Source of the DNA: an uncultured Clostridium sp.
Lineage (GTDB): Bacteria > Bacillota_I > Bacilli_A > RF39 > UBA660
Direction: 5' to 3'
Assembly (NCBI GenBank): GCA_946414595.1
Contig: CAMKPE010000010.1
Location: forward strand, 134 to 64,133
Length of the DNA: 64,000 nt
Positions 9,704 to 64,000 of this stretch are shown here, piece by piece. The notes beneath the pieces were generated by a model. It saw nothing but the letters and a program-made list of their open reading frames with translations, did not search any database and had not been told where the DNA came from. Within the stretch, counting starts at the first letter, position 1, and each line of letters opens with the position of its first letter. Both the position numbers and the translations under genes were made by a program.

Positions 9704-10070
9704 TCTTTTTATATTCTCTAATTATCCAAATCATTAATAAGGAAACTATATAATCTTTTTCAGTATCTGTTAATTCTCTTCCTTTAGGTATGTTATGCCA
9801 CTTTTCTAAACAAGATCTACAACAGCAACCACAAGCATGCATAGCAATGAAAACAGGATGTCCTTTCATAGGTGTTTGTTTACCATCATTTACCGGATTA
9901 CTAGGTACTAGTTTTTCATTAACAAAATCTATTGCATGTGACTTAACTATATCTAAACCTTTTTCATCTATATAAGAAATCATATACTTTCTAAGATGAA
10001 AACTACTTCTAAACTTAGATTTTGATAAAGATTCTAATTTCTTATTAATACTTATAACTTTATCATTCAT
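9696..10070 (-). CDS. DUF4186-like small protein with a conserved Cys cluster HACGCCCRSCLEKWHNIP.
   Basis: About 124 aa. KFRSSFHL...NDGKQTPMKGHPVFIAMHACGCCCRSCLEKWH matches my recollection of the DUF4186 family. Confidence 0.5.
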   Translation of the reverse strand: MNDKVISINKKLESLSKSKFRSSFHLRKYMISYIDEKGLDIVKSHAIDFVNEKLVPSNPVNDGKQTPMKGHPVFIAMHACGCCCRSCLEKWHNIPKGRELTDTEKDYIVSLLMIWIIREYKKSA

Positions 10071-11056: not shown

Positions 11057-11103
11057 ATAATCATCTCCTATTATATATTTTAATTGTATCATAATTTATA
11101 AAA

Positions 11104-11132
11104 AGAAAAAATCCTTATTTCTAAGGATTTTA
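11104..11132. terminator. Hairpin terminator aaaaatcctta-tttc-taaggattttt. Sequence identical to the one at 14568..14597.
   Basis: Perfect inverted repeat flanked by A-run and T-run. Lies just downstream of the stop of giant gene 11168..14485. Confidence 0.55.
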
Positions 11133-11167
11133 CTTTTATTTACTATTATTAAACTAGATTAGATATT

Positions 11168-14485: not shown

Positions 14486-14567
14486 ACCTCCTAACTATTA
14501 ATTATTATAGTATTAACATATTATTACTATTTTCTATATCATATACATTGTATCATAATTTAGCAAA

Positions 14568-14597
14568 AGAAAAAATCCTTATTTCTAAGGATTTTTA
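14568..14597. terminator. Hairpin terminator identical to 11104..11132, downstream of giant paralog B.
   Basis: Same aaaaaatcctta-tttc-taaggattttt sequence. A-run and T-run on opposite sides. Confidence 0.55.
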
Positions 14598-14600
14598 TCT

Positions 14601-17600: not shown

Positions 17601-18245
17601 TTCTTCACCTGGATTTTGTGAAGCCTGGCTATCTGGAACCCAAGTAGAATCAAAATCGACTTGATCTACATTTTCTGAATATGTTACATGATATGCATTA
17701 CCATCTTCTGGTTTTAATGTTTGTGGATTATTTCCCATTGCAGTATTTATATCATATGTATAAGTATCTGTTGTAACAGCTCCTTCTACTGTAATACCAC
17801 TTGCATTCATTGCTGGCCCTTCAAACACAGTAGAATCTGCTGTTGTAGTTGCTCCTGCTGTTGTTGTAGGATCAACAGTTACAGTTGGATCTGCTGTTCC
17901 ACTTCCTGTTGGGTCAACAGTTACAACCGGATCAGTTACCGGTGGCGTAGATGAAGCAGTTGTTGGTGCTTGCCACGCAGGTGGATTATCAGTGAAACTA
18001 CTACCATTTGTTTTAATACTTTCATGAGCTGCATTACTTCCTGCATCTAAAGATGTCCAGTTATAGCAAGCAGAACCATCAGTAGTTAAATAAGTTCTTG
18101 CATCTTGGATTGCTTGTGATAAATTACCACTATAATGTGTATCATTTTCAAAAAGCCAATGTCCCATTGCAATTGCAGCTGATTCTTGTGTTGAACAATG
18201 ACTTCCTTGAGTCATCCAAACCCAATCCCAATAATTATTTGCCAT
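14601..18245 (-). CDS. Giant paralog B, 1214 aa. Large secreted or surface protein of unknown function. Last gene of the 372aa-WXG-WXG operon.
   Basis: Paralogous to 11168..14485. Has a T/P-rich linker, WxG-like helix FLSWKGTASNSEKEAIETIIGKFE, a P-T-E-K/Q-P repeat linker, and C-terminal GGPHTGLDAMYNTNGETKQSTAGLGALAGLAVGAAGLGLTGLVDNKEDKEEDEEE. RBS aaagggggacctacaat ATG 17 nt after the stop of the WXG-like gene. Confidence 0.7.
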   Translation of the reverse strand: MANNYWDWVWMTQGSHCSTQESAAIAMGHWLFENDTHYSGNLSQAIQDARTYLTTDGSACYNWTSLDAGSNAAHESIKTNGSSFTDNPPAWQAPTTASSTPPVTDPVVTVDPTGSGTADPTVTVDPTTTAGATTTADSTVFEGPAMNASGITVEGAVTTDTYTYDINTAMGNNPQTLKPEDGNAYHVTYSENVDQVDFDSTWVPDSQASQNPGEEKYVGPVKYTDSNGGEHEGQIVKTPTGTYELQDASGATVTGAKITAYTGREGKVVYDMDVELGSGVTFDGRNWTASGTKDGAAFEGKVTYTTTVTQDGVTTTVTHDGIIVKDPATGEYKLYDATDTAQANPVDGATVTVLHNENADNAITVLKDAQGNVIDQSQVQVSDVTGVGHDDYHIKTDGYRALSNNETAGTHGKYVALTETDASGQTHTVKYFQSQADLDAYLAGYDLESMSPEEQEAVKNSLKVDPTKVDAHPNGQMDVDSVMPWSTQAIAKENGVGSVDRPDMHDEYMHETHVTQTTGSDDAGWGAFGNMDAETGKANGSTPGVTTGTNATRVTLYNNSRLGEILSTTGNPLGNTDTSKFSKLDYIATYAATGQYNAHDLQLMVDALEQNGVQFEAHPARYFFGTTYEQKYKQLGLPGEPQWGYTAEDLAAEVEELAQYAKAAHDKFLSWKGTASNSEKEAIETIIGKFEVTMGNIRESLLPACEALTELCTELENLKKEETKLYAIKGYSVGDGGATSPSNGLPDGAITVSYDGETASVNKNQRELVEAVNNASQDYQRLSNLVGPEPIRPTQGATEPDSTYQASLRSYNTQHSQWQSRKTEAENKLKEVHMYQAAQTQVDALIEAQATVCDGVLMSVIELYHKITNFEQTLNTFESFFVGSGFQNKRGVTLQDRSSWISSKDSMLTHLDDNDPTHDSIIKLFEDYSSMPVITPISGYYAAGEDGHSTIVPYKIGDVLIHDDAHGYYYAVTGEFDPLTGTIRIACFDKTGRKIGSDVTIWDQREIVPIRYVRDFDEEYSSIPDNFFETEPETVSEPEKNTERKTERKTHGHGTEAPTSHGTEKPTEKPTEKPSEQPTDRPTDAPTEQPTDRPTEQPTEHKTYAPHPIFTEPETGSWGGGPHTGLDAMYNTNGETKQSTAGLGALAGLAVGAAGLGLTGLVDNKEDKEEDEEEGKEEKKEEVKDETPMFSLNHPIEVEDKPQNVDKTTFGNNQ
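14935..15060 (-). repeat. In-frame 12-nt tandem repeats (tctgttggttgt-like) encoding the P-T-E-(K/Q)-P linker of giant paralog B.
   Basis: Visible tandem repetition gttggttgttctgttggcctatctgttggttgttctgttggtgcatcagttggtctatctgttggttgctc. Confidence 0.6.
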
Positions 18246-18262
18246 ATTGTAGGTCCCCCTTT

Positions 18263-18595
18263 CTAGCTATTAACATCTAGATTTTCAGCAAACTCTTCAA
18301 CGTTCTTGTTGATTTCTTCATTTACTAATCTATAGTCTTCTTTTGTTTTATTTAAAAATCTAATATAAATATCTAATGAATTTTCGATAGGATCATAATT
18401 TCCGTTAAGGATCTTATACTTTTCATACATGCTTCTTTGAGCTTGTCCTGTCCAAGTATCTGTCGCATTAACTTTTTCAGCATTTTGTTTTTGATTTGCA
18501 AAAACATCTTTCAACTTCATATATGAATTTGTTAATTCTGTAATTGTTTCTTCAAATTCACTAAAGTTGTTGATCTTCAAGTTCTGATTCGACAT
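18263..18595 (-). CDS. WXG100-like small helical protein, 110 aa (ATDTWTGQAQRSMYEKY). Candidate EsxB/Lap-type helper.
   Basis: Central W-x-G motif in a helical, acidic protein of about 100 aa. Strong RBS gaaggagg. 35-nt overlap with the upstream WXG gene. Confidence 0.55.
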   Translation of the reverse strand: MSNQNLKINNFSEFEETITELTNSYMKLKDVFANQKQNAEKVNATDTWTGQAQRSMYEKYKILNGNYDPIENSLDIYIRFLNKTKEDYRLVNEEINKNVEEFAENLDVNS

Positions 18596-18899
18596 AATTG
18601 ATAGCCTCCTTCTTTAACTCATTTCCACCTTCATCATCTTTTTCATCATAAAGGTTATTTGTTTCATTAACTGTATTAGAGATTTCTCTCATTGCTTGAG
18701 GAAGCTTTTTCATTTTCATTAAGTAGTTGTAGAAGTTGTTGCAGAATGTTTCTGCATCTTCTCCTTCCCAGTTTTCTCTTAACTTTTCAATGTTTGCAAG
18801 CATCTTCTCGATTTCTTCATCGAAATCAACACCGTCTTTGTCAATGGCATCTCTAACGTTTCCTAATTCTTCAGGATTAACTTTTAATACTCCGTCCAT
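18561..18899 (-). CDS. WXG100 family protein, EsxA-like. 112 aa.
   Basis: LKVNPEELGNVRDAID...LRENWEGEDAETF aligns with the S. aureus EsxA MSPEEIRAKS...ANWEGQAFSRF WXG core. RBS aggtga. Confidence 0.65.
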   Translation of the reverse strand: MDGVLKVNPEELGNVRDAIDKDGVDFDEEIEKMLANIEKLRENWEGEDAETFCNNFYNYLMKMKKLPQAMREISNTVNETNNLYDEKDDEGGNELKKEAINYVESELEDQQL

Positions 18900-18916
18900 A
18901 CATTATCACCTATCCT

Positions 18917-28210: not shown

Positions 28211-28648
28211 TTAAAAACCTCCTAAGTATCTTACAAATGCTACTACACAAGCAACACTAATACCATAGAAGAGCACTGATCCAGCAAGTTTAAAAACATT
28301 ACTTCCAATACCATATATAAGCCCTTCTTTTTTAAACTCAAGTCCAGCACTCATCATCGAATGAGCAAAACCAGTAATTGGTATAATAAGCCCACATCTT
28401 GCAAAGTTAACCCATTTATCAAAGAAACCTAAAGAAGTAAATAAGCAAGATACAAATATTAAAGTAACAATCATTAATGCTCCAGCATCTTTACTAGAGA
28501 TACCTAAATATAATGAATAAACATCTGTTAACAAACATCCAATAACTCCTAATAAACCACCAGTTAAGAATGCTATTAAACTATTAGATACTCTGTTTGA
28601 ACTAGCACTATGTTTATCTACTATTCTTTTATAATCTTTCTTTTCCAT
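28211..28648 (-). CDS. spoVAC: Stage V sporulation protein AC.
   Basis: Four-TM protein LIAFLTGGLLGVIGCLLTD...IPITGFAHSMMSAGLEFKKEGLIYGIGSNVF typical of SpoVAC. Start placed at MEKKDYKR with a ggtga RBS. Confidence 0.7.
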   Translation of the reverse strand: MEKKDYKRIVDKHSASSNRVSNSLIAFLTGGLLGVIGCLLTDVYSLYLGISSKDAGALMIVTLIFVSCLFTSLGFFDKWVNFARCGLIIPITGFAHSMMSAGLEFKKEGLIYGIGSNVFKLAGSVLFYGISVACVVAFVRYLGGF

Positions 28649-28702
28649 ATAATCACCATTATTAATATTTGCAATAATAATTAATGTATACAAAAAAACT
28701 GC

Positions 28703-29371
28703 CTAAGCAGCTTTCTTTGTTAATATATTATTTCTAATCTTATTTAATATCTTAGATTCTTTTCTTGATACTTGTACTTGTGATATTCCCATAGTTTCAG
28801 ATGTTTCTTTTTGACTCTTATCTAAGAAATATCTATCTATTATTAATGATTTTTCTTCATCATTTAACTTTTCTATTTCTTCTTTTAAATCTAATATGTC
28901 TTCATTGTATCCTTTTTCTATATAAGCTTCATAATCATATAAGTTACTATCTTTATCTTCACTTAATTCATAATCTAAACTTTTAATAGACATACTACTA
29001 TTTATTGCAGAATAAATGCTTTCTATAGGTACTTCTAAGTATTCTGCTATTTCTTCTAAACTAGGCACTCTTTCTTTAACCTGTGTTAAATATTCTTTAA
29101 CTTTATTAATTGACCTTAATAATTTAGTATTCTCAATATTAACTTTTATTAATTTATTTTCTCTAACATACTTTAGTATTTCACCCTTAATATAAAAGTG
29201 TGCATAAGTAGAAAACTTAGTACCACTATCTTTCTTATAATTCTTTAAAGCATTATAAAGTCCAATATTACCTACTTGATATAAGTCTTCTAAATCATTT
29301 TCATTATAGCTATATTTCTTTGCTATAGAATATATTAACTTCCGATACTCTACTACCGTATTGTTATCCAT
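28703..29371 (-). CDS. Sporulation sigma-70 family factor, SigF/SigG-like.
   Basis: Region 2 LYQVGNIGLYNALKNYKKDSGTKFSTYAHFYIKGEILKYVR. Region 4 ETSETMGISQVQVSRKESKILNKI, almost identical to the B. subtilis SigF C-terminus. Start at MDNNTV with an AGGAGA RBS. Confidence 0.75.
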   Translation of the reverse strand: MDNNTVVEYRKLIYSIAKKYSYNENDLEDLYQVGNIGLYNALKNYKKDSGTKFSTYAHFYIKGEILKYVRENKLIKVNIENTKLLRSINKVKEYLTQVKERVPSLEEIAEYLEVPIESIYSAINSSMSIKSLDYELSEDKDSNLYDYEAYIEKGYNEDILDLKEEIEKLNDEEKSLIIDRYFLDKSQKETSETMGISQVQVSRKESKILNKIRNNILTKKAA

Positions 29372-29474
29372 TTTATCTCCTCTATGCATATAAATATAGA
29401 ACAATATTTTAAATATTTATACAGATTCGACAAAACTAGCTAAAAATAGAAAAAAAGTAATGTAAATAATTACA

Positions 29475-31682
29475 TTACTTATTGTTAACTAATATTGCAC
29501 TTGAATAAGTTACATTTCCTTGGCTATCTTCAATCTTGAATAAAGCATAGTATCTATTAGAAATATCTAAATCACTAAATTCTAATGTAAATGATTCAGT
29601 TGTATCTAATTGCATTTGTGCAATCTTTTGAGTTGATTGCCAATTAGTTCCATTTAATGTTGTATATTGATAACTATTAAATGAAATTATATCGTAGTCC
29701 TCAATTAATAATTCAACTTTAGGTGCTACTTTATCTTCTTTATCATTCATTGGTACAACTCTACCCATATATCCTTTAGGATGATCTTCATCAACTATGA
29801 ATTCAATATAAGCATTAATTACTTCATATTCATAATCATCACCAAATCTAGAAAGTGTTATTGGTATTAAATACTTAACATAATCTTTTCCTTTTTCACT
29901 TTCTAATGCAGTTAAGTTAAGAATATTTCCATCACCATCAGTAATAGATAACATCTTTCTTGATACTGTAGTGCTCATTGTATTTCCTTCAACATTTACA
30001 TCACTACCATTATAAATTGGTGTATATGTATTGTTGTCATTCATAATAAACAATGTATAACTTACATTACTGTAGTTCTTAGCAACATCATCAGTTGTAG
30101 TAATAGATATATTACCTTCTCCATTTGCTTTTACAGTACTTCTTGATAGATCAAATGTATTCATTCTCTTTCCAGTTAATTTATCTGCAAAGTTAGAAAT
30201 AAATTTAAAGTAGTCTCTAGCAAATCCAAAACCATCATAAATAGTCATTATGGAAGATAAATAATCTCTAAATTCATATGGGAAATATATTGATACACCA
30301 TAACTATCTTGTAAGTCTGATTTATTATAAATAACAAAATCATTTATTGAACTCTTTAAGTTATTAACATCTTCACTATATTTTTCAGGTAATCTGTTTG
30401 CAAAATCAACTAAGTCAATCAAGTCAAACGTATATTCACCATATGGATCTCTTCCAAAGCTCTTAGAATTTTTTCTTGTTCTTGTTATAGTTGAATAATC
30501 AATATCTAAATTATCATCAATATTTTCAAATAATTTATTTAAGTATTTTTCTACATTATCAATTTTATTAAGTCTCATAACTGATAATGTTACACCTTTT
30601 ATATAACTATATTTTCCATAATATGCATCGTAATAATCTACGATGGATTTAGTTAATGTTACTGTATCTGTATCTGGAGTTATTTCTCCTAAGAAACCAT
30701 AATCCCAACCAGCACCTGGTTCTGCTTCTTCACTGGCAACCAGGTAATCTGTATAGTCAACTAATGAATAAGCAACCTCAACGCTCGCCATTAAACAAGC
30801 ATCAAAACCAACATATTCAAGTTTTCTTTCAGGTCCAAATGGACTATCACTTAATGCTTTTTTAATCATTGAAAGTGACATAAATTTTCCTTCTTGGTAC
30901 TCGTCAGATCCATATCCAAAAATAGGTCCTCCACCATGATCCCATAGAATTAAACTATAATAATCTGCTTTATAATTATCATATCCATATTGTAATAAGT
31001 ATGTTAAGTTTGCTGGATCAAGCATATTATTAGAACCACCTAACTCTTCAAGTAATTCTAATCCATCATTAGTTAATCTATACAAAGCATGTTTATCACT
31101 TGGAATATTATAACTATGCCAATTAGTTGCTCCTCCTGTATAGATAAGTACATTTACTTTTTCAAAGTCAGCATTAGAATCTCTCATCTCTGCTATATCT
31201 TTTGTTGCACTAAAATATTTACTTTCAAGATCTGCTCCAATCATATAAACCATGATTGTTCTTTTTCCTGTTTTAGTATTAAATATTGTATCTTTAGTTA
31301 AAAGGAAAATTGTACCTAATAACACAAATACAAATACACAACAAATTATTGCAGGTATATGACTCTTCTTTTTATTGTCTCTATAATTGCTTTGGTAATT
31401 TCCATAGTTTGTATTATAACTTTGTCCTGCTTGAACATTAATTCCGTTATTTGCTATAGCATTATCAAATAAAACTGCTTTCTTAATTTCACTAGATGGA
31501 TTTGTTAGTTTGTTTCCACAGTTCCCACAGAACTTTTCATTACTTTCAAACTTTGATCCACAATTTTGGCAAAATACGACATTTTGTTTTTTTTCTAATA
31601 CTGCTGCACCACAATCTGGACAAAATCTTGTTTTGTCATCATATTCTTTGTTACAGTTTTTACAAAACATCATTGCACTCAC
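29475..31682 (-). CDS. Clostripain-like C11 family cysteine peptidase. N-terminal double zinc ribbon and one TM anchor. 735 aa.
   Basis: N-terminus FCKNCNKEYDDKTRFCPDCG ... FCQNCGSKFESNEKFCGNCG. TM IPAIICCVFVFVLLGTIFLL. C11 blocks MVYMIGADLES, VLIYTGGATNWH, ILWDHGGG, GFDACLMASVEVAY (His/Cys dyad). Confidence 0.65.
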   Translation of the reverse strand: MSAMMFCKNCNKEYDDKTRFCPDCGAAVLEKKQNVVFCQNCGSKFESNEKFCGNCGNKLTNPSSEIKKAVLFDNAIANNGINVQAGQSYNTNYGNYQSNYRDNKKKSHIPAIICCVFVFVLLGTIFLLTKDTIFNTKTGKRTIMVYMIGADLESKYFSATKDIAEMRDSNADFEKVNVLIYTGGATNWHSYNIPSDKHALYRLTNDGLELLEELGGSNNMLDPANLTYLLQYGYDNYKADYYSLILWDHGGGPIFGYGSDEYQEGKFMSLSMIKKALSDSPFGPERKLEYVGFDACLMASVEVAYSLVDYTDYLVASEEAEPGAGWDYGFLGEITPDTDTVTLTKSIVDYYDAYYGKYSYIKGVTLSVMRLNKIDNVEKYLNKLFENIDDNLDIDYSTITRTRKNSKSFGRDPYGEYTFDLIDLVDFANRLPEKYSEDVNNLKSSINDFVIYNKSDLQDSYGVSIYFPYEFRDYLSSIMTIYDGFGFARDYFKFISNFADKLTGKRMNTFDLSRSTVKANGEGNISITTTDDVAKNYSNVSYTLFIMNDNNTYTPIYNGSDVNVEGNTMSTTVSRKMLSITDGDGNILNLTALESEKGKDYVKYLIPITLSRFGDDYEYEVINAYIEFIVDEDHPKGYMGRVVPMNDKEDKVAPKVELLIEDYDIISFNSYQYTTLNGTNWQSTQKIAQMQLDTTESFTLEFSDLDISNRYYALFKIEDSQGNVTYSSAILVNNK

Positions 31683-34596: not shown

Positions 34597-34992
34597 TTAC
34601 ATATTCCTACAAGATTCTAATGCATTTTGAGCTTCTCTTGTACATTCACTAATAAACCATATACCTAATATTATCAAAATAACTATATATATCATATTTA
34701 TTATAAAATAAAGTAAAACCATTTTAGAATTGGGATATTTAACTTTTGCAAAAATTGATATGACAAGAGCAACATTTTGTAACACAATAAAGAAAGGTAT
34801 TAAATTAAAGTTTTTTGTAGCCATTAATAATATCAAAAATAGGATTGATAAACCAAGAAATATATAACCTATAGAACATAAAACTGTTTCTTTATTGTCA
34901 TGGTTATTCCCGTTGTAAATTCTTGTACCACATTTGCCACAAAATTCACTACCATAATCTAAATTGTTTCCACATCTTGGGCACTGCATCAA
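34597..34992 (-). CDS. Zinc-ribbon plus TM membrane protein, 131 aa.
   Basis: MMQCPRCGN...FCGKCG zinc ribbon followed by 3 TM helices. Confidence 0.5.
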   Translation of the reverse strand: MMQCPRCGNNLDYGSEFCGKCGTRIYNGNNHDNKETVLCSIGYIFLGLSILFLILLMATKNFNLIPFFIVLQNVALVISIFAKVKYPNSKMVLLYFIINMIYIVILIILGIWFISECTREAQNALESCRNM

Positions 34993-35004
34993 TAGTTCAC
35001 CACC

Positions 35005-35454
35005 CTATCTACCATATTTATCATTTATATAATTATTTAACTTATAATTAAACTTTTCCTTCATCATTTGCCATACTCCCCATCCAATTGCTCCCAAACC
35101 AACTGGGAAAATTGTAAAGAATACCCAAACAGACTCAAGCATTATAGAAAAAACAATACCTAATATTATACATACAATAAATATTATTACTGCAGCTATT
35201 AAATATATGTTAGTAGTTTTTTTATTGAATTGATAAACTCTTTCATTTATTTCTTTTCTTTTTTGATATAAAGTTTTTTGATTTACTGGGGCTCCACATT
35301 TTGGGCAAAAACTACTACCAGCATTCACTTGTGTTCCACAACTATTACAAAAACTATTTTGTTGTGGTGAAAATCTACTTCCACATTTGTAACAAAATTC
35401 ATTACTTTCTGGGTTTTCTACTCCACACATTGGACAATATTTCATACTATTCAT
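35005..35454 (-). CDS. Double zinc-ribbon plus TM membrane protein, 149 aa.
   Basis: CPMCG..CYKCG and CNSCG..CPKCG pairs, then 2 TM helices. Confidence 0.5.
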   Translation of the reverse strand: MNSMKYCPMCGVENPESNEFCYKCGSRFSPQQNSFCNSCGTQVNAGSSFCPKCGAPVNQKTLYQKRKEINERVYQFNKKTTNIYLIAAVIIFIVCIILGIVFSIMLESVWVFFTIFPVGLGAIGWGVWQMMKEKFNYKLNNYINDKYGR

Positions 35455-48745: not shown

Positions 48746-49231
48746 TTACTTTATTTTTTTTATACCCAAAACTTTGACCATCTTTTCTTTTGGTTTTCTT
48801 CTTTCTAAATATCTATTAATAAATGTATCTAAACTAACTAAGTCATTAAGATTTTTAATAACTATATCTATTTCTTTATCATTAATATATTTACTTCTAT
48901 TTAAAAAATATTTATATTTCTTTGGATTTATCCCCACTACTTTCTTAAAAGTTTCAGAGTAATATTCAATTGAATTAAATCCATGATCAAGAGCAATACT
49001 TAAAACATAATTATCATATTTATAATCAGATAAGCTTTTAAATACTTTTACTCTATTTATATAATCAAATATAGATAGACCTATTTCTTTTTTAAATTTC
49101 TTCATTATATAGGTTTTATCATAATAAAAAAGATTAGATAAAAGAGTTATATTTATCTCTTTATATATGTTTTTATTTATATATTCTAATATGTCGCAAA
49201 TAAGATTATTTGAATACATAATAATCACCAA
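48746..49231 (-). CDS. Short AraC-family HTH transcriptional regulator.
   Basis: Two HTH units ...FKKEIGLSIFDYINRVKVFKSL... and ...LSIALDHGFNSIEYYSETFKKVVGINPKKY. Confidence 0.65.
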   Translation of the reverse strand: MVIIMYSNNLICDILEYINKNIYKEINITLLSNLFYYDKTYIMKKFKKEIGLSIFDYINRVKVFKSLSDYKYDNYVLSIALDHGFNSIEYYSETFKKVVGINPKKYKYFLNRSKYINDKEIDIVIKNLNDLVSLDTFINRYLERRKPKEKMVKVLGIKKIK

Positions 49232-49316
49232 TTACTATTATAACACAAAATGCCATTATTGTTTAACTGAAATAATAAAAAGAGTATTATTATATATGCA
49301 TGAAAGGAGTGATAGT

Positions 49317-50639
49317 ATGTCATATGCAAGATGGGCAACTAAAGAAGAAGTAGTTGAAGCAACTACAAAATTAACTAAGGGGGATATTTCTAAGTCAGGA
49401 ATTCAAGTAATGTATGATGAAGATAGTCTATATGTAGATAGTAGAGAAATTCACAATCTAATCATTGGTTCTACGGGATCAGGCAAAACACAGACAACTG
49501 TACTTCCACAATTATATACATCAATAATGGCTAATGACTCATTTATAGTAAATGATCCAAGAGGAGAAATCTATGAAAAAATGAGTGGTTTAGCAAATCA
49601 AAATGGATATAAGATAAATGTATTAAATTTCCAAGATCCTTCAAAAGGAAACAATTTTAATCCATTACACTTACCATATAAATTATATAAGAGTGGAAAT
49701 ATTGATGCAGCTATTGAAATGTTAGAAGATATTGGATATTACATTATTTGCGAAGATCATAAAACTGATGCTGATCCATTCTGGGAAAACTCTGCCACTA
49801 CTCTATTTACAGGTCTTGCTTTATACTTATTTGAAAAAGCAAATGCTGAAGCAATTAACTTAAATAGTATAGTAAGCTTAAGTACTAAAATTGAAGAAGT
49901 AGTAAAAGAAGTTAAAGAAATGGATAAGAATTCATTAATCTATAGTACACTTGCTGCAATAGTAAATGCTCCAAAAGAAACATTTACATCAATAGTAGCA
50001 GTATTCATTCAAAAAGCTAGATTAATAACTTCAAGAGAATCAATTTCTAAAATATTATGTAACGATAATATGGATTTAGAAAATATTAAAAAGGATAAAA
50101 CAGCAATATTCGTCATCGGAGATGGAAGATACTCAAATGTTATATTCCCAATGCTAATAAACGAAGTATTTAAGATGATAGATATCAACAACTACAAAGA
50201 AAGAAGATTAAATATCATCTTAGATGAATTTGATTCATATAAACCAATTAAAAACTTCAACAATATGCTTTCAGTATCAAGAAGTTTAAATATTAGATTT
50301 AATATCTTTATTCAAAGTATTCTTGAACTTGAATATGTATATGGTAAAAAAGAAGCTGAATTCATTAAAATGTGCTTTGGAAATATTTACTACTTACTTG
50401 CAAACGATTATGAGACATTAGATTACATTTCTAACTTATGTGGAAGATCATCAGAAAACGAAATGCTTGTTACAAGAGAAGATCTAAAGACTCTTAAACC
50501 ATTTGAAGTAATAATAATTAAAATAAGAATGTACCCAATAAAAACTAAATTGTTACCTTACTTTGAATTAAAGATTGAAGATATAGCCCCACTAGAAATG
50601 AAAAATCTAGAATATACAAACATAGTTATTTACAAATAA
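49317..50639 (+). CDS. Orphan TraG/VirD4-like (T4SS-DNA_transf family) ATPase lacking an N-terminal TM domain. 440 aa.
   Basis: Walker A IIGSTGSGKTQT followed by VNDPRGE. Walker B/DExx ILDEFDS. C-terminal FIQSILELEYVYGKKEAEFIKMCFGNIYYLLAN matches the coupling-protein QS..QL...YG block. Start at MSYARW with a gaaaggag RBS. Confidence 0.6.
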   Translation: MSYARWATKEEVVEATTKLTKGDISKSGIQVMYDEDSLYVDSREIHNLIIGSTGSGKTQTTVLPQLYTSIMANDSFIVNDPRGEIYEKMSGLANQNGYKINVLNFQDPSKGNNFNPLHLPYKLYKSGNIDAAIEMLEDIGYYIICEDHKTDADPFWENSATTLFTGLALYLFEKANAEAINLNSIVSLSTKIEEVVKEVKEMDKNSLIYSTLAAIVNAPKETFTSIVAVFIQKARLITSRESISKILCNDNMDLENIKKDKTAIFVIGDGRYSNVIFPMLINEVFKMIDINNYKERRLNIILDEFDSYKPIKNFNNMLSVSRSLNIRFNIFIQSILELEYVYGKKEAEFIKMCFGNIYYLLANDYETLDYISNLCGRSSENEMLVTREDLKTLKPFEVIIIKIRMYPIKTKLLPYFELKIEDIAPLEMKNLEYTNIVIYK

Positions 50640-53734: not shown

Positions 53735-55201
53735 TTATATAGTTTTATAAAAAATATTTTTATTTCTTTTCGTTACTATATCCATAAACTTATAATAGTA
53801 TGTTTTATATCCATCTAGTAATTTGTCATTAAGTTTTTCATATGGATACATTTTATAACTATGTCTATAACTATCTTTTACTGAATAAACATAAGATAGT
53901 GACGCAGTTGGATTAGTAAGTGTAATAGTACTAACCCCATTCTCTATTTTTTTGTTAACTTCGACACTCATTACAAGCCCAGTTAGTTTTTCAACTCCAT
54001 ATTGACTTGCTACGAAGTTTCCAAGTGAGTATATTACCATAGTTTTACCTATAAAGTCAACCGGTTGTATTACATGTGGATGGTGTCCTATGACAATATC
54101 TACACCTAAACTTGCTAAATAGTTAGCAATTCTTTCTTCTTCAGCAGTTGGAGTATGTGTATATTCTTCACCCCAGTGCATTGCAACCATTAACAAATCA
54201 ACTTTACCTCTTAGCCTTTCAACATCTTTTTTAGCTTGAAGATCTGAATAAACATTAACTAAATATTCTTTACCTTCAGGCACTCTAAGACCATTCGTAG
54301 TAGTTGTATATGATAAAAGTGCATAAATTATTCCATTTTTCTCCATTATTACATCTTTATCTCTATCTTCAAAACTAGAATAACTTCCTGCAGTCATTAT
54401 TCCTTCTTTACTCTTCCAATAATCTAGGGATGATAAAATACCCTTCTCACCTTTATCTAAAGAATGATTATTAGCCAAAGATACTAAATTAAATCCTAAG
54501 TCAAGAAAAGCATCCCCAACTTCCTTAGGAGAATTAAATCTAGGATAAGAAGAAAGCCCTAATTCAGTTCCTCCCAAAAGAGACTCTTGATTGTAGAATG
54601 CTAAATCATATTTACTAATTATATCTTTATAATATTCAACTAATGGATGAAAATCATACTTACCTGTACTTCTTTTAACATCATCATATATTGCCCCATG
54701 AATCAAACAATCACCAACCATAACTAAAGATAAGTTATAGTTTTCTACAACTGCTTCTTCATAAGGTAAATTAATCCTACTAACATCATTCTTTAAGTCA
54801 GGACTTTTACCTGATCCATAAAGAAGGTTGTAAACAAAGATTAATACTAAGAAAGCTACTATAGATAAGAAGATGTATAACAAGCTATTACTACTTTTAG
54901 TAACATATTCTTTCTTTTCTTCTTTAACTATCTTTTCTACTTTTGGCTCTTCTTTTGCTTTGAAATCAAATACTTGAAGAGGTTCAGTAGTTACTACTTT
55001 TTCTTTCTTAACTGGTGCTTTTCTACTAGTTGTTTTTCTTGTAGTAGTCTTTTTAGTTGTAGTTGTCTTCTTAGTTGCTGTTTTCTTAGCAGTACTACTT
55101 GTTGTCTTTTTCTTAGTTGTAGTAGTTTTTTTCTTAGATGTTGTCTTCTTTGTAGTAGTTCTCTTTTTTGTAGTTGTCTTCTTTTCCTTTTCTTCTTCCA
55201 T
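53735..55201 (-). CDS. CapA/PgsA-family metallophosphoesterase with Lys/Thr-rich N-terminus and TM anchor.
   Basis: MHWGEEYTHTPTAEEERIANYLASLGVDIVIGHHPHVIQP ... LGNFVASQ matches CapA (poly-gamma-glutamate synthesis family). Confidence 0.7.
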   Translation of the reverse strand: MEEEKEKKTTTKKRTTTKKTTSKKKTTTTKKKTTSSTAKKTATKKTTTTKKTTTRKTTSRKAPVKKEKVVTTEPLQVFDFKAKEEPKVEKIVKEEKKEYVTKSSNSLLYIFLSIVAFLVLIFVYNLLYGSGKSPDLKNDVSRINLPYEEAVVENYNLSLVMVGDCLIHGAIYDDVKRSTGKYDFHPLVEYYKDIISKYDLAFYNQESLLGGTELGLSSYPRFNSPKEVGDAFLDLGFNLVSLANNHSLDKGEKGILSSLDYWKSKEGIMTAGSYSSFEDRDKDVIMEKNGIIYALLSYTTTTNGLRVPEGKEYLVNVYSDLQAKKDVERLRGKVDLLMVAMHWGEEYTHTPTAEEERIANYLASLGVDIVIGHHPHVIQPVDFIGKTMVIYSLGNFVASQYGVEKLTGLVMSVEVNKKIENGVSTITLTNPTASLSYVYSVKDSYRHSYKMYPYEKLNDKLLDGYKTYYYKFMDIVTKRNKNIFYKTI

Positions 55202-55203
55202 AA

Positions 55204-55794
55204 TTATTTCTTCCTATAAAAAACAGATAATACTGTAACAAATCTATATAAAATTCTATTACTTCTATTTATAGCAATACTTTTACCTATTGCTTTTCCT
55301 CCGATTGTCATTGCTGCAATTGCTGCAGTTACTAATAATGTAACTGCAAGAAGAGATATATTAAACTTGTTTGCCACAATTATTGAAATACTTACACCAA
55401 CAGAACCACTTATGATTCCGCAAATATCTCCAATTACATCATTACAAAAGCTAGATACTTTATCAGCGTTTTTGATTAATCTAACTGCAAGATGTGCTCC
55501 TTTAACTTTTTTAGTAGCCATTGAATTAAATGTTTTAACATCTGCAACAGTAACACTGATACCTATCATATCAAATAAAATACCAAGCCCAATAAATGCA
55601 AAAATTAATACTGCACTTACAAGTATATGAGCATTAGGTATTATAACTTCACCAATAAAAGAAAAAACTAAAGATATAAAAAAAGAAACAATAGTTATTA
55701 AACTAACCCATTTAACATCTATTTTCTTCTTATCTTTAATTGGTTTTTTTCTTGCTTTATTTGAATATTTTTCTTTATAGTCTTTATCTTTCAT
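55204..55794 (-). CDS. Small 4-TM membrane protein with DUF21/CNNM-like transmembrane domain and no CBS pair. Candidate OapA (OLE-associated protein A).
   Basis: LVSAVLIFAFIGLGILFDMIGISVTVADVKTFNSMATKKVKGAHLAVRLIKNADKVSSFCNDVIGDICGIISGSVGVSISI resembles the CNNM/CorB TM domain. 196 aa. Lies directly downstream of a GC-rich non-coding region. Confidence 0.5.
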   Translation of the reverse strand: MKDKDYKEKYSNKARKKPIKDKKKIDVKWVSLITIVSFFISLVFSFIGEVIIPNAHILVSAVLIFAFIGLGILFDMIGISVTVADVKTFNSMATKKVKGAHLAVRLIKNADKVSSFCNDVIGDICGIISGSVGVSISIIVANKFNISLLAVTLLVTAAIAAMTIGGKAIGKSIAINRSNRILYRFVTVLSVFYRKK

Positions 55795-55799
55795 ATTCG

Positions 55800-56390
55800 C
55801 CTCAAATAAAAATCAGAAATGGCAATTAACATAGTAAACCTTGTGTCATTAGGTCAAGTTGGATTTCCCTTAATCTTACTTATTCGTTACCAAATAAGCA
55901 GTTCCCTTTTGAAAGATTAAATAGATAGTTACCTAATCTATTACTTGATAGCCACTTAGTACACACTACAATCCTATATCAATTTACACTCTAGGAGTTT
56001 TCCTCAATCAATGGAATATTGCTTATGTTTTTTTGCAGTGAAAGTTTCAGGTAGCAATACTGTATTACAAGATGTACACCTTCTAACAAGTTGTCTTCGT
56101 CCCCCAACACCACTCAAACCTGGCTACTCTATCCATAGCTTTAGCCACAAGATAGGTTCACGCCTAAGTCGTAAGTTCTCACGATTTTAGGTCTCCGCGG
56201 GAAAATGGAACGGTTGCCGTATGCCGTTACGATCGTCCATAGCCCCTTCAAATTCAGCACCCACCCCATACTGGGCGTAAGAAGCAAGCACCAAACGTTT
56301 CATAGATATGCCTTCTAACGATATTTTACCCTCGTCTTCACAATATTGTATTGACTAGAATAATGCGCCATTTCTGCTACATTATATCAT
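55800..56390 (-). ncRNA. Candidate large structured ncRNA, about 600 nt, GC-rich. Putative OLE (ornate large extremophilic) RNA co-oriented upstream of an OapA-like gene.
   Basis: About 600 nt with no ORF over 50 codons on either strand. 45-50% GC within a roughly 27% GC genome. A TAAAAT -10 element at the 5' side. Immediately upstream of a 4-TM DUF21-like gene, the known ole-oapA arrangement. RNase P RNA and tmRNA conserved motifs were looked for and not found. Confidence 0.45.
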
Positions 56391-56427
56391 ATATAAATGT
56401 TTTTATCAAATGATTTACTAAACAAAA

Positions 56428-56462
56428 AACACCAGATTTACTTGTTTTTAAGCCTCTGGTGT
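56428..56462 (-). terminator. Hairpin acaccaga-ggcttaaaaacaagtaaa-tctggtgt plus TTTTTGTTT on the minus strand, after gene 56469..57512.
   Basis: Inverted repeat seen directly. Confidence 0.45.
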
Positions 56463-56468
56463 AAATTA

Positions 56469-57512
56469 TTATTTTATTTCGCTTCCGCCCCATTCAACTA
56501 CTGTGAATCCAACTCTTTTTGGAGTATTAAGAACTTGTTCTTTAACCTCAATTGGTTTATCAAGTGCCTTATAATCCATTAAAACTCTAATAATAGTATC
56601 TGGGTTTGGATTAATCTCTAGTTTCATATAAGAATTAATCTCTTCCATAGTTTCAAATCTAATATAATTGTATTCATTTGCTTCTAGTTTAGGTAACCAG
56701 TAAACAATGAATTCATTTGCTTCTCTTTCATTTAATCCAAGAAGAGCTAACTTTTCTTCTAAGAAAGCTAAAGTATCTTCTTTCTTAACTACAAATCCAT
56801 CTTCTTTTACTTCAGCACGATGGTTATTTCCTTCCCAATATAATGCATAATAGTATCTATTTGTAACTTTGTCGTATAAATCTCCATTTGTCTTAGCATA
56901 TACTTTCCATCCATCGTTATATCTTGGATAACTTACAAATATATTTTCACTATTAGTAAGTTTTACTTCTACATCCATATCCTCTTCTGGATATAAATAA
57001 ATAATAGGTTTATATGCAACATTAGGATCACAATCAGGTTTGTTTCTTGCTACATAATTTATTTCTACAGATAAATCTGTAACAGTTTTATCAACTGGTA
57101 ATAGATAATACATATAATATGGAGCACATACACCACAATTAGCAGTATAACTTGCAGTTACTTTTAAAACATTATTATCTACTTCATAACTATTGATTTT
57201 AATGTCTTTATCTGTACAAGAATCATATGCAATTTCAACAACTGCATAATTATTATTATCAAAAGCTTTTTCTTCTACTTTTCCTTCTTCAAAAACATTT
57301 AGATATTCGTTATAACTTGTTAATACTTTTTTATCTGTTTTAATTTCGTCTGAATAATCTCCAAGGAAGATTGCATCAGTAACAACTTTTTCTTCTCCTT
57401 TTTTATTATTTAGTAATATTAGTAATACTATTGTTATTGCAAGAATTAAAACTACTCCTGTAATAATAAAAACTAAATTTTTATTTTTAATATTTTTCTT
57501 TTTCATAAACAC
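56469..57512 (-). CDS. Membrane-anchored hypothetical protein, 347 aa, with N-terminal TM and a large Cys-containing ectodomain.
   Basis: TM LVFIITGVVLILAITIVLLILL. No motif recognised. Confidence 0.4.
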   Translation of the reverse strand: MFMKKKNIKNKNLVFIITGVVLILAITIVLLILLNNKKGEEKVVTDAIFLGDYSDEIKTDKKVLTSYNEYLNVFEEGKVEEKAFDNNNYAVVEIAYDSCTDKDIKINSYEVDNNVLKVTASYTANCGVCAPYYMYYLLPVDKTVTDLSVEINYVARNKPDCDPNVAYKPIIYLYPEEDMDVEVKLTNSENIFVSYPRYNDGWKVYAKTNGDLYDKVTNRYYYALYWEGNNHRAEVKEDGFVVKKEDTLAFLEEKLALLGLNEREANEFIVYWLPKLEANEYNYIRFETMEEINSYMKLEINPNPDTIIRVLMDYKALDKPIEVKEQVLNTPKRVGFTVVEWGGSEIK

Positions 57513-58437: not shown

Positions 58438-58743
58438 CTATCTATTATTAAAGCAACAACAAGATCCACATTGTACATTAGTACATACATTTTCTTCACA
58501 ACAAGTATATCTAGGTTGATATGTATGACGATATACATGATTATTAATTATTTTTGTATTAATTGGACATATATGTGGAACTTCATGCATTATTGTTCTA
58601 TTTACTACTCGCTCTTGCATAGGCTCAATTATTGGTGAAGAGACATTCCCCATCATTGTATTCCCCATATTAAAATCTACATCAACATTAACATCAGCAT
58701 CTCCAAAGAAATTTTGATTAAAACTATTTGAATCTGTAAACAC
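58438..58743 (-). CDS. Small Cys/His-rich protein, 101 aa, possibly CotD-like spore coat protein.
   Basis: IMHEVPHICPINTKIINNHVYRHTYQP resembles the CotD VHPTHCCEH...IVPHIHPQ pattern. C-terminus CCEENVCTNVQCGSCCC. Confidence 0.3.
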   Translation of the reverse strand: MFTDSNSFNQNFFGDADVNVDVDFNMGNTMMGNVSSPIIEPMQERVVNRTIMHEVPHICPINTKIINNHVYRHTYQPRYTCCEENVCTNVQCGSCCCFNNR

Positions 58744-58844
58744 TATTATTCCTCCTATCTGAAATATTTTATGTAAAAATAAGAGAAATGCTATTTTATG
58801 AGCCTATTCATGATATAATTATTCTAATAGAAAGGTATTTTGAT

Positions 58845-59921
58845 ATGGCTTTAATAAAATGTATTGAATGTGGAAAAGAAATAAGCGATAAGGCAGAAAC
58901 ATGCCCAAATTGTGGATACCCAACTGATGCTTCAATTGAACAAGCTGAATTAAAAAAAATTGAAGAAAAATATGAAAAAAGAGAAAAAGAGATAAAGAAT
59001 GTAAAAAAGAAAAAGAAAAGTAAAAGAGAATTAATAATTTTAATTATTGTTCTTGTAATTGCAATTATCGCACTAACACTTTATTTTACGGTTTTTAAAG
59101 GAGGCAAAAGCAGCAAAGATAGTAATAAAGACTATAAAATTGACAATGCTCTTGTTTGTTATAGTAGAGATAGTTTTGGTGCCGGATCATATAAATTAGA
59201 ATTTTTCTTTAGTGGTGAAAAGATGATCAAAATTACGGAATTCTTTATTACCAACTGTAACTACTACCCTACTGATGATCCAAGATTTCCAGACTGTGCA
59301 AACAATTCTTATGGTTATGATGATTATTTAGTTGATAATAATGTAGGATTTATAAAACGTGTAATGGATGTAGTATCTAATCCTTCACAAGCTCACTCCT
59401 TAGTAAGTTTAAAAGATATACGTGCAAACGATTCTCCAAAGGATGTTAAAGATAAACTAGTTAAATACGATTGTGAGAAAAAAGATAATTTAGAAGAAAG
59501 CAAAAACGAAATCGTTCCAGCAAAAGATAGACTTGAAGAAGCTTTAAAGCGCTATGGATATGAAACAAAAAATGGAACAGAATATACACTGGATTACTCA
59601 AATGGTGATTATGTTATGAATTATTCTTTAAATCTTTCTAATAAAACTTATAGATCTTATCAAAAAAGTAAAGGTGTAGAAACTACAATAGTATATAACT
59701 TAAAAACAAAGGTTATTGATCTTACTTTTGTTGAACCTCATGAAAAATATAAATCAACTATTAGTTGGGATTTAAACACTGGAAATTATAATTGTAATTC
59801 TACACAAAACAATTGGTGTAACAAGTATGCTCAAGAATTCGTTGAAGTTACAATAAAAAATACACTTACTACTTTCGAGCAATTGCAAAATAGAGCTCAA
59901 GTTTTCCCAAGTGAATTTTAA
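58845..59921 (+). CDS. Zinc-ribbon plus TM membrane protein with about 270-aa Cys-containing ectodomain.
   Basis: MALIKCIECGKEISDKAETCPNCGYP zinc ribbon. Poly-Lys stretch. TM LIILIIVLVIAIIALTLYF. Start at 58845 with a TATAAT -10 and a gaaagg RBS upstream. Confidence 0.55.
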   Translation: MALIKCIECGKEISDKAETCPNCGYPTDASIEQAELKKIEEKYEKREKEIKNVKKKKKSKRELIILIIVLVIAIIALTLYFTVFKGGKSSKDSNKDYKIDNALVCYSRDSFGAGSYKLEFFFSGEKMIKITEFFITNCNYYPTDDPRFPDCANNSYGYDDYLVDNNVGFIKRVMDVVSNPSQAHSLVSLKDIRANDSPKDVKDKLVKYDCEKKDNLEESKNEIVPAKDRLEEALKRYGYETKNGTEYTLDYSNGDYVMNYSLNLSNKTYRSYQKSKGVETTIVYNLKTKVIDLTFVEPHEKYKSTISWDLNTGNYNCNSTQNNWCNKYAQEFVEVTIKNTLTTFEQLQNRAQVFPSEF

Positions 59922-61184: not shown

Positions 61185-64000
61185 ATGAAGAAATTGTTAT
61201 CAAAAATTACAATTTTATTAATAATGCTTAGTTTCTTTATACCAGTATTCGTTAACGCATGGTCTGATAATATGAATGGTGCATGGAAATATGCATATGC
61301 CTATCAGATTACCATAGTAAAATACGATGGTGAAGGAACCCCAGAAGCATTAGGTAAACCAATACTTGTTTATCATCCAAATCTATTGCAAGATGTTTAC
61401 TACACTACAAATGAAAAAATGCCAAAAAATTATGATGATTTAACACAAAATGCTTGGGGGTATCGACAACTAATCGATCCTAAAGATGATCATGCAATAA
61501 GTCAAATGTATTGGCTATACGAAACTGATGATCTTGATTATAGTGATGCAGACAGTTTTGAACAATTAAAAGAAGCAGTTGACAAACTTAATGCAGATGA
61601 TTTCTCTGCAGAAGGTCTATATGATGTTGCAAAAGACTTAATAGAAGATAAAAATTTGGGGGATGGTTCAATTGTTTGTAGCAAAGTTAGTGGAAGATGT
61701 GAACGTTCTAAAGATGGTGATCAAAGATACTTTAATTACGATCGTAGCGATGTTATATTTGCTCAGCCATATTTAAAAAAAGCTACAAGGGACCCTGAAA
61801 GTGGACGTACTGGTTATAAAAAATTTATTTACACATTTTTAACTCCACAAAGAAAAATAACATACCATGGTAAAGATGTTGATTTAAGCAAATATTATAA
61901 AACTTTTTCCGATTCTAATTTGACAGAAAATAATGTTAATAATGGTTACTTAGAAACTATTGCAAAAAAATATGCTGGAAGCGTTAAAAAAGTACGAGAT
62001 AATTTTGGAATAGACTTAGATTATAAAGATATTGATAAATATTATGTATCTTTTGAACCTGTTCAAAGAGTACTAGATGGTATCAAACAAGATACGGGAA
62101 CTTATTATATAACGTCCCATGAAAAAATAGTAATTAAAGAAGTAACATGGCAAAAAAGTGATTGGGAATTATCAGATGCAGTGTGCAACCGTACTTTCAC
62201 AATACCAACTGGAAGACATAAATATGAAAACAGATTTAGAGTTGAAAATCATTATTGCAATTATAAAGTGAAAGATGGGGTCTCACACTTTCAAGGTTCG
62301 ACATATTATTGGGATGGTCGTGCTTGTTATTCAAAAAGATTTGATTACTGCCGTGCATATCTATTAAAGAACTTACAAAATGGAGTTAAGATTATTAAAA
62401 ACCTATATGGAAGATATGCAGACGGATATAGTCATTTAGAAACATCAAGAAAACTTGGATCAGGAGCAGTATATCTAAATAGAGCAGTCGATTACTGTAA
62501 CGAAGATAAGAATAAACATTGTGTTTTAGAAGATGATAACCAAACATGTAAGAAAGATTCAAGTGGAAACATAATGTATGAGTATTATATTGGTCCAGAT
62601 AGAGATTTAGGTATTACTGGAACACAAGAAAAGAATTACTATAAATTAAGTGGAGCTTGTTATAGTGGAACAGGAACAACAGGAATTAAACATTTCTTTC
62701 TACAAACATTACTTGACTGTCCAGAAGTATGTTCTGCAGCAGGAGAAAAAACAAGTGATTCCTTCTTAGCGTGTGCAGAAAACTTCTGTGAAGCTGAAGT
62801 TGACTATAACAGAAAAGGAAGTCCACAAAAAGCTAAAGAAGCATGTATCTTAACATGTGGATATAGACCACCAGATTATGATAAAAATTCTGGAGAAGGA
62901 ACAACAAATTGCGAAGCAACAAGTCCTTATAAAGATATAAATGAAGTAACAGCAAATGGAACAACAACATGTAATGTTAATGATGATGGATCTGGGAAAG
63001 TATTAAGCGGTCTAATAAAAACATGTGATGGAAATAGAATAGATTCATTTGATGGGGATGATACAAACGATACTCCATTTGATATAAGAAGATATGTTAC
63101 AGTAGCATGTATGGAAACAAGTGCATTTGAATATAAAGATGCATCTAAATTAGAAGTTATAAGAGGAACAGGACTTAATTATAGTGTTGTTCTAAACGGA
63201 GAAAAGAAATGTCAAGCGTATTTTGATGAAGATCAGTGGAAATTTGACTATGCTACTATTTCAGGAAAAGATCCAGACAGAAGAAAAAGATTACTCTATA
63301 TAAAAGAAGTATATAATCATATGTTTGATGATACGTATGATAAAACAAAAAGTGCATATTATGACCCTGACTTTGCAGAACAAGGTGATGGAGAAATAGA
63401 TTGGAATCTTTACTTGTATGACACAAAAAAAGTATCAGTAAAATCACAAATAACAGAAAGCGTATATGGAGAAACAAAGCAAAGTGACCTTGAAACATTA
63501 GTAACTACAGAAGAAACTGGAAAAGCTACAAAGGTTATAATAAATAACGGCGTTGCAAAAAAAATATCAAAAAATAATATAATAGATGAACCTTTTAATA
63601 AATATGAACAAGTGAGCACAGTTAAAGCTACATATCAATTTGATAACAGATGTGTTAGTAATGATGGACTAGGAACAGTTACAAAAGCACCAGCATCAGG
63701 TCTATGTTATCAAACAAAAGATGAACATGGTGTTGTAACACCAGTATATGGACAAAATGTATTCTATACAAATTTACAAGCAGATGTATCTGGTAACAAA
63801 GTAAATACGTTTGCTACTGTAGGAAAAGAAGTAAAAGATGATAATACTTACTATGATGTAAAAGAAAGATGTGATTATACTACTAAAGGTGATGTTATTC
63901 CTCCTAGTAATTATTTATCATGTGATATAAGAATAGATCCAGTAGGTAGTACAGAAGCATGGGGAAATAGTATTTATCATGGAGGAGACGTAACAGCAAC
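61185..64000 (+). CDS. Very large Cys-rich secreted protein. 5' portion only (over 938 codons). Runs off the end of the window.
   Basis: RBS taggag plus ATG at 61185. Signal peptide MKKLLSKITILLIMLSFFIPVFVNA. I read the frame open to position 64000 with more than 40 Cys. Not in the ORF track because no stop lies within the window. Confidence 0.6.
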   Translation, partial: MKKLLSKITILLIMLSFFIPVFVNAWSDNMNGAWKYAYAYQITIVKYDGEGTPEALGKPILVYHPNLLQDVYYTTNEKMPKNYDDLTQNAWGYRQLIDPKDDHAISQMYWLYETDDLDYSDADSFEQLKEAVDKLNADDFSAEGLYDVAKDLIEDKNLGDGSIVCSKVSGRCERSKDGDQRYFNYDRSDVIFAQPYLKKATRDPESGRTGYKKFIYTFLTPQRKITYHGKDVDLSKYYKTFSDSNLTENNVNNGYLETIAKKYAGSVKKVRDNFGIDLDYKDIDKYYVSFEPVQRVLDGIKQDTGTYYITSHEKIVIKEVTWQKSDWELSDAVCNRTFTIPTGRHKYENRFRVENHYCNYKVKDGVSHFQGSTYYWDGRACYSKRFDYCRAYLLKNLQNGVKIIKNLYGRYADGYSHLETSRKLGSGAVYLNRAVDYCNEDKNKHCVLEDDNQTCKKDSSGNIMYEYYIGPDRDLGITGTQEKNYYKLSGACYSGTGTTGIKHFFLQTLLDCPEVCSAAGEKTSDSFLACAENFCEAEVDYNRKGSPQKAKEACILTCGYRPPDYDKNSGEGTTNCEATSPYKDINEVTANGTTTCNVNDDGSGKVLSGLIKTCDGNRIDSFDGDDTNDTPFDIRRYVTVACMETSAFEYKDASKLEVIRGTGLNYSVVLNGEKKCQAYFDEDQWKFDYATISGKDPDRRKRLLYIKEVYNHMFDDTYDKTKSAYYDPDFAEQGDGEIDWNLYLYDTKKVSVKSQITESVYGETKQSDLETLVTTEETGKATKVIINNGVAKKISKNNIIDEPFNKYEQVSTVKATYQFDNRCVSNDGLGTVTKAPASGLCYQTKDEHGVVTPVYGQNVFYTNLQADVSGNKVNTFATVGKEVKDDNTYYDVKERCDYTTKGDVIPPSNYLSCDIRIDPVGSTEAWGNSIYHGGDVTA

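Follow-up and report, generated by a model that had tools for sequence, protein, structure and literature searches.

A predicted full-length OLE RNA and its adjoining oapA gene in an uncultured gut Bacilli genome

The minus strand of the window (the whole 64,000-nt stretch of DNA analysed here) contains, in a GC-rich gap between two genes, what is predicted to be a complete copy of the known OLE RNA, directly followed by a gene whose 196-aa product is predicted to be OapA. Such a pair had been proposed in a preliminary description made from the letters and their open reading frames, and the proposal is now supported by a match to the Rfam family RF01071, by the OapA traits of the protein and by the adjacency of ole and oapA in relatives. 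The locus is therefore read as one in which an OLE RNA driven by sigma-A would be transcribed with run-on into oapA and would, by analogy, form a ribonucleoprotein (RNP) at the membrane, a reading to which a probability of about 0.94 is given.

OLE is a large structured bacterial RNA which acts at the cell membrane and possibly spans it, and its biochemical function is still being sought. The RNA (ornate, large, extremophilic) was reportedly described by Puerta-Fernandez in 2006, and the protein OapA, short for OLE-associated protein A, was reportedly treated by Block in 2011 and by Harris in 2019. The features of the locus, in the order of transcription, are as follows.

56422..56463, minus strand: terminator-like hairpin at the 3' end of the upstream 347-aa gene, identified by folding
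56409..56381, minus strand: predicted sigma-70/sigma-A promoter, TTGATA-17 nt-TATAAT with a TG extension, identified by promoter search
56387..55803, minus strand: OLE RNA as delimited by RF01071, its first ~12 nt overlapping the -10 box of the promoter
55794..55204, minus strand: oapA, 196 aa, four-TM and CNNM-like, an ORF starting 9 nt downstream of OLE
53735..55201, minus strand: PGA_cap/CapA-family gene, 488 aa (PF09587, 226 bits)

Extent, covariation and stems of the OLE RNA

About 670 nt separate the ORF ending at 56469 from the ORF starting at 55794 (both minus), and no ORF within them exceeds 59 aa. The region had been described as free of ORFs, which is borne out for the 585-nt stretch 55803..56387, where no long ORF is present (the six-frame maxima are 76 codons for a stop-free run and 59 aa for an ORF with a start codon). 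Its position directly 5' of a co-oriented gene for a 196-aa four-TM protein was also described correctly, as this gene occupies 55204..55794 on the minus strand and its product has four predicted TM helices. The raised GC content that had been claimed holds for the peak (50.5% at 56091..56300, the top 200-nt value of the window), but the background against which it was set is 28.8% in the window and not 27%. The OLE element has 38.5% GC overall, unevenly spread with 42% in the 5' two-thirds (56000..56387) and 31% in the 3' third (55803..55999), and it ranks 164th among 6342 frames of 585 nt, which is within the window's top 2.6% but not the highest frame.

The Infernal search with RF01071 that the preliminary description had named as a check of its proposal returned a full-length, untruncated match at 56387..55803 (minus), which takes in model positions 1-616 of 616 and scores 363.9 bits, seven times the gathering threshold of 50; chance is excluded by the covariance-model E of 2.6e-103. 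When the whole window was scanned with Rfam 15 at gathering thresholds, two matches were obtained, namely OLE and a tRNA-Leu (CAA) at 21585..21670. The RF01071 model comprises 159 pairs, both partners of which are present here in 152 cases, and 136 of these 152 are canonical or G-U.

The secondary structure was further assessed in an alignment of 28 OLE sequences (the window and 27 relatives), which came from loci found via the OapA protein, their OapA proteins being 45-78% identical to window OapA. The sequences were aligned by MAFFT, which is blind to structure, and the Rfam structure was projected onto the alignment through the window row. Under this structure 89.4% of the cells are paired across the 28 sequences, versus 38-46% with the 3' partners slid by 1-3 columns, while compensatory changes, with both sides altered, occur at 98 of 148 pairs, and none of 500 column shuffles matched any of the observed covariation measures. 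Approximately 170 columns are invariant (~25% of the nucleotides) and match the upper-case blocks of the Rfam consensus, and no disabling change was seen at these positions in the window OLE. The RNA unites a score above the gathering threshold, a structure with compensatory changes, high conservation, an oapA gene downstream and a Bacillota host.

The stems of the RNA are listed below, with names that are probable assignments from their order and from text anchors (PMC9723947, PMC7936274, PMC11332333), those of P7 and P8 being taken from order and PMC11332333.

56297..56251, minus strand: P5/P5.1, a long hairpin with a GCCCA loop (structure mapping, PMC9723947)
56246..56199, minus strand: P6 hairpin with an invariant GGCAUAC loop region (model mapping; covariation helices 3-4)
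56191..56163, minus strand: P7 hairpin with a short tip (covariation helices 5-6)
56155..56129, minus strand: P8 hairpin (covariation helices 5-6)
56120..56026, minus strand: P9-P9.3 'arch', a long composite hairpin (covariation helices 7-10)
55984..55824, minus strand: 3' multi-helix domain, part of 'domain 2' (covariation helices 12-17)

P5/P5.1 (helix 2) is 93% paired, with compensatory changes in 10 pairs, and is flanked by J4a/5 (...AUCUAUGAAAC) and, on its 3' side, by UUGAAGGGG; in the OLE RNA of H. halodurans the region flanking P5 forms a k-turn bound by OapC/bS21, and P6 comes next (PMC9723947). Helices 5-6 (P7/P8) are 89.5% and 99.7% paired, respectively. The P9 arch (helices 7-10) is 66-90% paired with 28 pairs showing compensatory changes, its distal part being the least conserved region of the RNA and pairing less well (66-75%), while helices 12-17 of the 3' domain are 89-100% paired with 34 such pairs. 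This domain holds the invariant P12.2 (UCAAGU/ACUUGA), the adjoining P13 (AUAGA-U-UAG[GUAA]CUAUCUAU), in which a U is bulged and the loop is of the GNRA type, P14/P14.1, where GUAA recurs as a loop, and GGGAAAUCC. The conserved loops of the window OLE are GCCCA, GGCAUAC, GAGGAAAACUC and GGGAAAUCC, and the sequence contains two CUAG palindromes. The published binding site of OapB comprises helix P12.2 and hairpin P13, the latter with one bulged nucleotide and a GNRA loop (PMC7936274), and P13 of the window RNA is predicted to be an intact OapB docking site.

With P7, P8 and an intact OapB site all retained, the RNA falls into the 'full-length' type of OLE (Fernando & Breaker 2024, PMC11332333), with which it shares the whole model, P5-P9 and P12.2-P14.1, the OapB site, oapA downstream and an anaerobic gut Bacillota host. 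It departs from the full-length consensus in that it is AT-rich (38.5% GC), its P7 tip is 15 nt shorter than in the Rfam consensus (deletion at model ~213-227) and the small Rfam hairpin at model 424-432 is absent. The same hairpin is missing from 27 of the 27 aligned relatives, among which the length of the P7 tip varies by 0-35 nt, and both the short tip and the missing hairpin are, as judged from the alignment, clade-wide traits. Two shortened types have been described, variant 1 (TANB77-type, with short P7-P9 and no OapB site) and variant 2 (RF39-type, without P7 and P8) (PMC11332333). Their kind of host, uncultured low-GC gut Bacillota, is shared with the window, but the window RNA is neither of them, as P7, P8 and the P13 GNRA loop and bulge are kept. 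Among the otherwise full-length relatives, a 531-nt OLE of 276 bits from a goat-omasum Bacilli MAG (L011:2428-2958) is without exactly the P7-P8 block, and appears by its sequence to match the published variant 2.

OapA and its adjacency to ole

The 196-aa protein, whose N-terminal tail is Lys-rich, had been likened to CNNM/CorB in its TM domain, and this is upheld by a weak CNNM/DUF21 match (Pfam PF01595, 22 bits, E 1.4e-4, below the threshold of 28.4) and by CorB/CorC as the best structural matches. No CBS or CorC domain and no other Pfam domain was found in the protein, and an NCBIfam search with it gave no matching model. Its kinship with CorB/CorC is visible solely by fold comparison, since a PDB sequence search yielded no match at E<=1. 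An AlphaFold2 model built on the homolog alignment (pLDDT 87.5) contains helices at residues 27-51, 57-83, 110-144 and 148-176, all four of which are covered by two hydrophobic blocks in the sequence. The four best PDB matches to this model fall on archaeal CorB (7m1t, 7m1u) and on the TM domain of CorC (7cff), with nothing but noise below them; the same structural kinship has been published for OapA of H. halodurans (PMC11332333).

The family to which the protein belongs is ~195 aa long, with 7634 matches when clustered at 90% identity and 1088 when clustered at 50%, the latter being representative clusters counted at E<=1e-3. Window OapA is 98% and 94% identical to the nearest clusters and 63% to the nearest species-representative genome, and a search for its exact sequence retrieved no public contig. 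In an alignment of 40 homologs (A1; 33-82% identical to window OapA), D75, D119, G122, D123, G130, K167 and K171 are invariant. A proline that is conserved in CNNM domains is among the features which OapA is described as lacking; in A1, an alignment of OapA homologs alone, proline occupies no conserved column, and it occurs in the window protein solely at positions 18 and 53. The two invariant aspartates D119 and D123 form the DxxxD motif (D119-V-I-G-D123), the hallmark separating OapA from CNNM domains (Fernando and Breaker, PMC11332333).

Set against the published OapA criteria, the window protein shows no difference in kind: four TM helices, DxxxD, a sub-threshold CNNM match, a CorB-like fold and a place right after ole are all present, and the protein is identified by them as OapA. 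With MpfA/CorB/CorC it shares the same TM fold (Foldseek probability 1.00, TM-score 0.46-0.51 over ~140 columns), but unlike those proteins it has neither a CBS pair nor a CorC domain, carries an extra N-terminal TM helix, bears DxxxD and is paired with an RNA; with 196 aa and just a sub-threshold CNNM match it does not qualify as one of them. It has been proposed that the OLE RNA supplies functions of the domains missing from OapA (PMC12265935).

The decisive evidence for OapA is genomic, the pairing with ole being a property of the relatives as well. In 39 of 40 homolog loci from species-representative genomes, a full match to Rfam puts OLE upstream of oapA in the same orientation, and an nhmmer profile recovers this arrangement in 79 of 83 loci, where the gap has a median of 39 nt. 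Three metagenomic contigs with a 78%-identical OapA give an equally strong OLE match in the same syntenic place. The gap between ole and oapA amounts to 0.5-1.7 kb in four loci (L013, L022, L024 and L053), and around three OapA homologs from gut Bacilli MAGs (L023, L033 and L037) a search with a relaxed Rfam threshold found no OLE in the 3 kb to each side. These three are possible exceptions to the adjacency, or their OLE may lie farther off.

Expression signals and genomic neighbourhood

The terminator-like hairpin upstream of ole (CACCAGAG...CUCUGGUG, then UUUUUUGUUU as the U-run) has a folding energy of -15.1 kcal/mol (z -3.68), and equally good folds occurred in none of 200 shuffles. It closes the upstream 347-aa gene, and ole therefore opens a new transcription unit. 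A simple terminator scan of 53.5-57.7 kb, which allowed loops of <=8 nt, found no terminator, and it missed this hairpin, whose branched top it probably treated as a loop of >8 nt. The predicted ole promoter has 11 of 12 matches and is the best promoter-like site of the region. In 25 of 27 Bacilli-clade relatives a promoter with 10-12 of 12 matches occupies the same position, the end of its -10 box lying 9-20 nt ahead of the conserved UGGYRCA, and a dedicated ole promoter is thus a feature of the clade. Because the first ~12 nt of the RF01071 match overlap the -10 box, the 5' end of the OLE transcript is probably near 56375.

Between ole and oapA the simple scan found no terminator-like site, and the GAGG ribosome-binding site of oapA, 7 nt before the ATG, lies within the 3' tail of the Rfam match. 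Co-transcription of ole and oapA, then processing, is likely by analogy with H. halodurans (PMC12265935). The two systems differ in that ole of H. halodurans lies inside a long polycistronic operon (PMC12265935), whereas the window ole has its own near-consensus promoter right after a terminator.

Among named relatives, those closest to the locus are "Bacilli bacterium" MAGs of uncultured gut organisms (rabbit, goat, mouse and human), genomes for which OLE is already on record, and the titles of the nearest loci are those of gut MAGs of a Bacilli, Bacillota, Mollicutes or Erysipelotrichaceae bacterium. The capA-like gene begins 2 nt past the oapA stop and is probably on the same transcript. 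Its product starts with ~75 residues that are nearly all Thr, Lys and Ser repeats, followed by one TM segment. This gene stands next to oapA only in the three closest loci (L001-L003) and is absent there in the other 80. The downstream order on the minus strand is oapA, the capA-like gene, an unknown but conserved protein of 203 aa, a NAGPA phosphodiester glycosidase and recX, and in the gene order of the relatives rpoZ lies between NAGPA and recX. The 203-aa protein comes after oapA in 9 of 83 loci and NAGPA in 12 of 83, all from one sub-clade. The capA-like and NAGPA genes are outside the neighbour genes named in the OLE papers.

Directly 5' of ole, the 347-aa gene at 56469..57512 (minus) has no Pfam match, and its product has no tblastn similarity to the 370-aa gene in the same slot of L001-L003, while EamA, ole and oapA flanking the slot are 78-88% identical to those of the same three loci. 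The slot appears to have been replaced or to be hypervariable. Among the scanned ORFs of the 64-kb window, which is a part of the genome, no KOW (OapB), L7Ae (OapC), bS21 or CNNM+CBS+CorC (MpfA) protein was found. From the intact P13 site an oapB gene (ybzG) would be expected in the genome, and from the published anticorrelation zero or one mpfA gene. At 26867..29404 (minus), spoVAC, spoVAD and spoVAEB adjoin a gene for a sigma-70-family factor, and this low-GC gut organism is predicted to keep sporulation genes. The presence of OLE correlates with sporulation genes (PMC11332333), and the spoVA genes of the window agree with this.

Several other parts of the window were annotated in the course of the analysis. 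The interval 48746..50639, between recX and a PrsA-like rotamase, contains genes for a TraG/VirD4-type coupling protein (490 aa, plus strand) and an AraC-family regulator, the recX-to-rotamase interval of L001-L003 is without either gene, and the interval 48746..50639 may be a mobile-element remnant. The large ORFs at 11168..18245 were considered in this analysis as rpoB/rpoC with ybxF/oapC nearby, which was ruled out by Pfam. The region 10070..20035 (minus) encodes two very large proteins (1105 and 1214 aa), for which a PT repeat is the sole Pfam match and which sit between sortase-like and WXG100 (type VII secretion substrate) genes together with small unknown ORFs, and may be a secretion or surface-protein cluster. 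A second non-coding gap at 61.2-64 kb was rejected, as a single long ORF (61185..64000, plus strand) leaves the end of the window; the region resembled a gap in the ORF list because this ORF is open-ended. Its product of >938 aa has a signal-peptide-like start, many cysteines and no Pfam match. A Cys-rich ORF of 101 aa without a Pfam match (58438..58743, minus) adjoins a zinc-ribbon membrane-type protein (58788..59921, plus), and further zinc-ribbon (DZR) proteins are encoded at 34597..35454 and 29475..31682, the latter fused to a clostripain domain.

Proposed mechanism, alternatives and significance

On the basis of the family membership of RNA and protein, the covarying structure, the adjacency and the promoter and terminator signals, the following course of events is proposed. 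The promoter at 56409..56381 would drive an OLE RNA of ~570-585 nt, and transcription would probably continue into oapA, there being no terminator between the two, and perhaps into the capA-like gene. On the model of Halalkalibacterium halodurans and Clostridium acetobutylicum, the RNA would fold and dimerise, and a dimeric OapA, as a relative of the CNNM/CorB Mg2+ transporters, would bind it and keep it at the membrane. The resulting RNP may aid the cell under stresses such as too much Mg2+, low temperature, short-chain alcohols and poor carbon sources. The stability and processing of the RNA, its dimerisation, the binding by OapA, the membrane localisation and the physiological role are thereby carried over from the literature, according to which OapA probably transports divalent cations in the manner of CNNM proteins and functions of the cytosolic domains of MpfA may be supplied by the RNA (PMC12265935, PMC11332333, PMC12286853). 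At the level of sequence, all that OLE and OapA are expected to require appears to be present and under purifying selection, and no feature of the sequence speaks against the assignment.

The structured region could instead be a mere long cis-acting 5' leader of the oapA mRNA, similar to a riboswitch or attenuator. The co-orientation of ole and oapA at a distance of 9 nt, the lack of a terminator-like site between them and the position of the oapA ribosome-binding site inside the tail of the Rfam match would all suit such a leader. However, the OLE family is known experimentally as an abundant processed RNA of ~600 nt that forms an RNP (PMC12265935, PMC12286853), the spacing of 0.5-1.7 kb in L013, L022, L024 and L053 does not fit, and ~150 conserved base pairs with ~25% invariant nucleotides far exceed the need of any known leader, all of which makes a leader very improbable. 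Slightly less credible still is a decaying, non-functional ole remnant in a reduced gut genome, for which the short P7 tip (15 nt) and the lost small hairpin could be taken as signs, shortened OLE variants being carried by gut Bacilli and Clostridia with reduced genomes (PMC11332333). Decay is at odds with the match to every model region, the 136 intact pairs among the 152 retained and the conservation of the positions invariant in the 28 sequences (invariance being defined with the window row included). The oapA ORF is moreover intact with all invariant residues, the strong promoter is conserved, and the same short features occur clade-wide together with compensatory changes, which points to purifying selection.

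Hardly conceivable is a third explanation, in which the 196-aa protein is a truncated Mg2+ exporter of the MpfA/CorB type that is unrelated to the RNA and adjoins it by coincidence. The weak CNNM similarity, the CorB/CorC structural matches and the label 'CBS domain containing hemolysin-like protein' given to homologs in some databases lean towards it, but the protein has no CBS/CorC domain, possesses four TM helices versus three and the OapA-specific DxxxD, and belongs to a large family of the same ~195-aa length with OLE upstream in 79 of the 83 sampled loci. The reading as an ole-oapA locus with a sigma-A-driven OLE RNA is accordingly preferred.

The RNA family, its OapA partner, their adjacency and their occurrence in gut Bacillota have already been described, and the window copy is an ordinary one, one more AT-rich gut-Bacilli OLE beside the thousands catalogued, which opens no long-standing question. 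The main value of the finding is annotation, in that a "non-coding gap" of 0.6 kb and a membrane-protein gene that had no name become an OLE/OapA pair, for the recognition of which the reading of the sequence alone had sufficed. A modest comparative use lies in the dedicated promoter, the clade-specific trimming of P7, the loss of the small hairpin and the local linkage to envelope genes. It is a speculative and rather unlikely extension that ole-oapA of gut Bacilli is an autonomous, strongly promoted unit heading an envelope-gene operon (CapA/PGA_cap, the 203-aa protein and NAGPA). If true, this would link the OLE particle specifically with the making or breakdown and renewal of a cell-wall polymer, and it would fit a recent proposal in which domain 2 of OLE reportedly reaches the cell wall.
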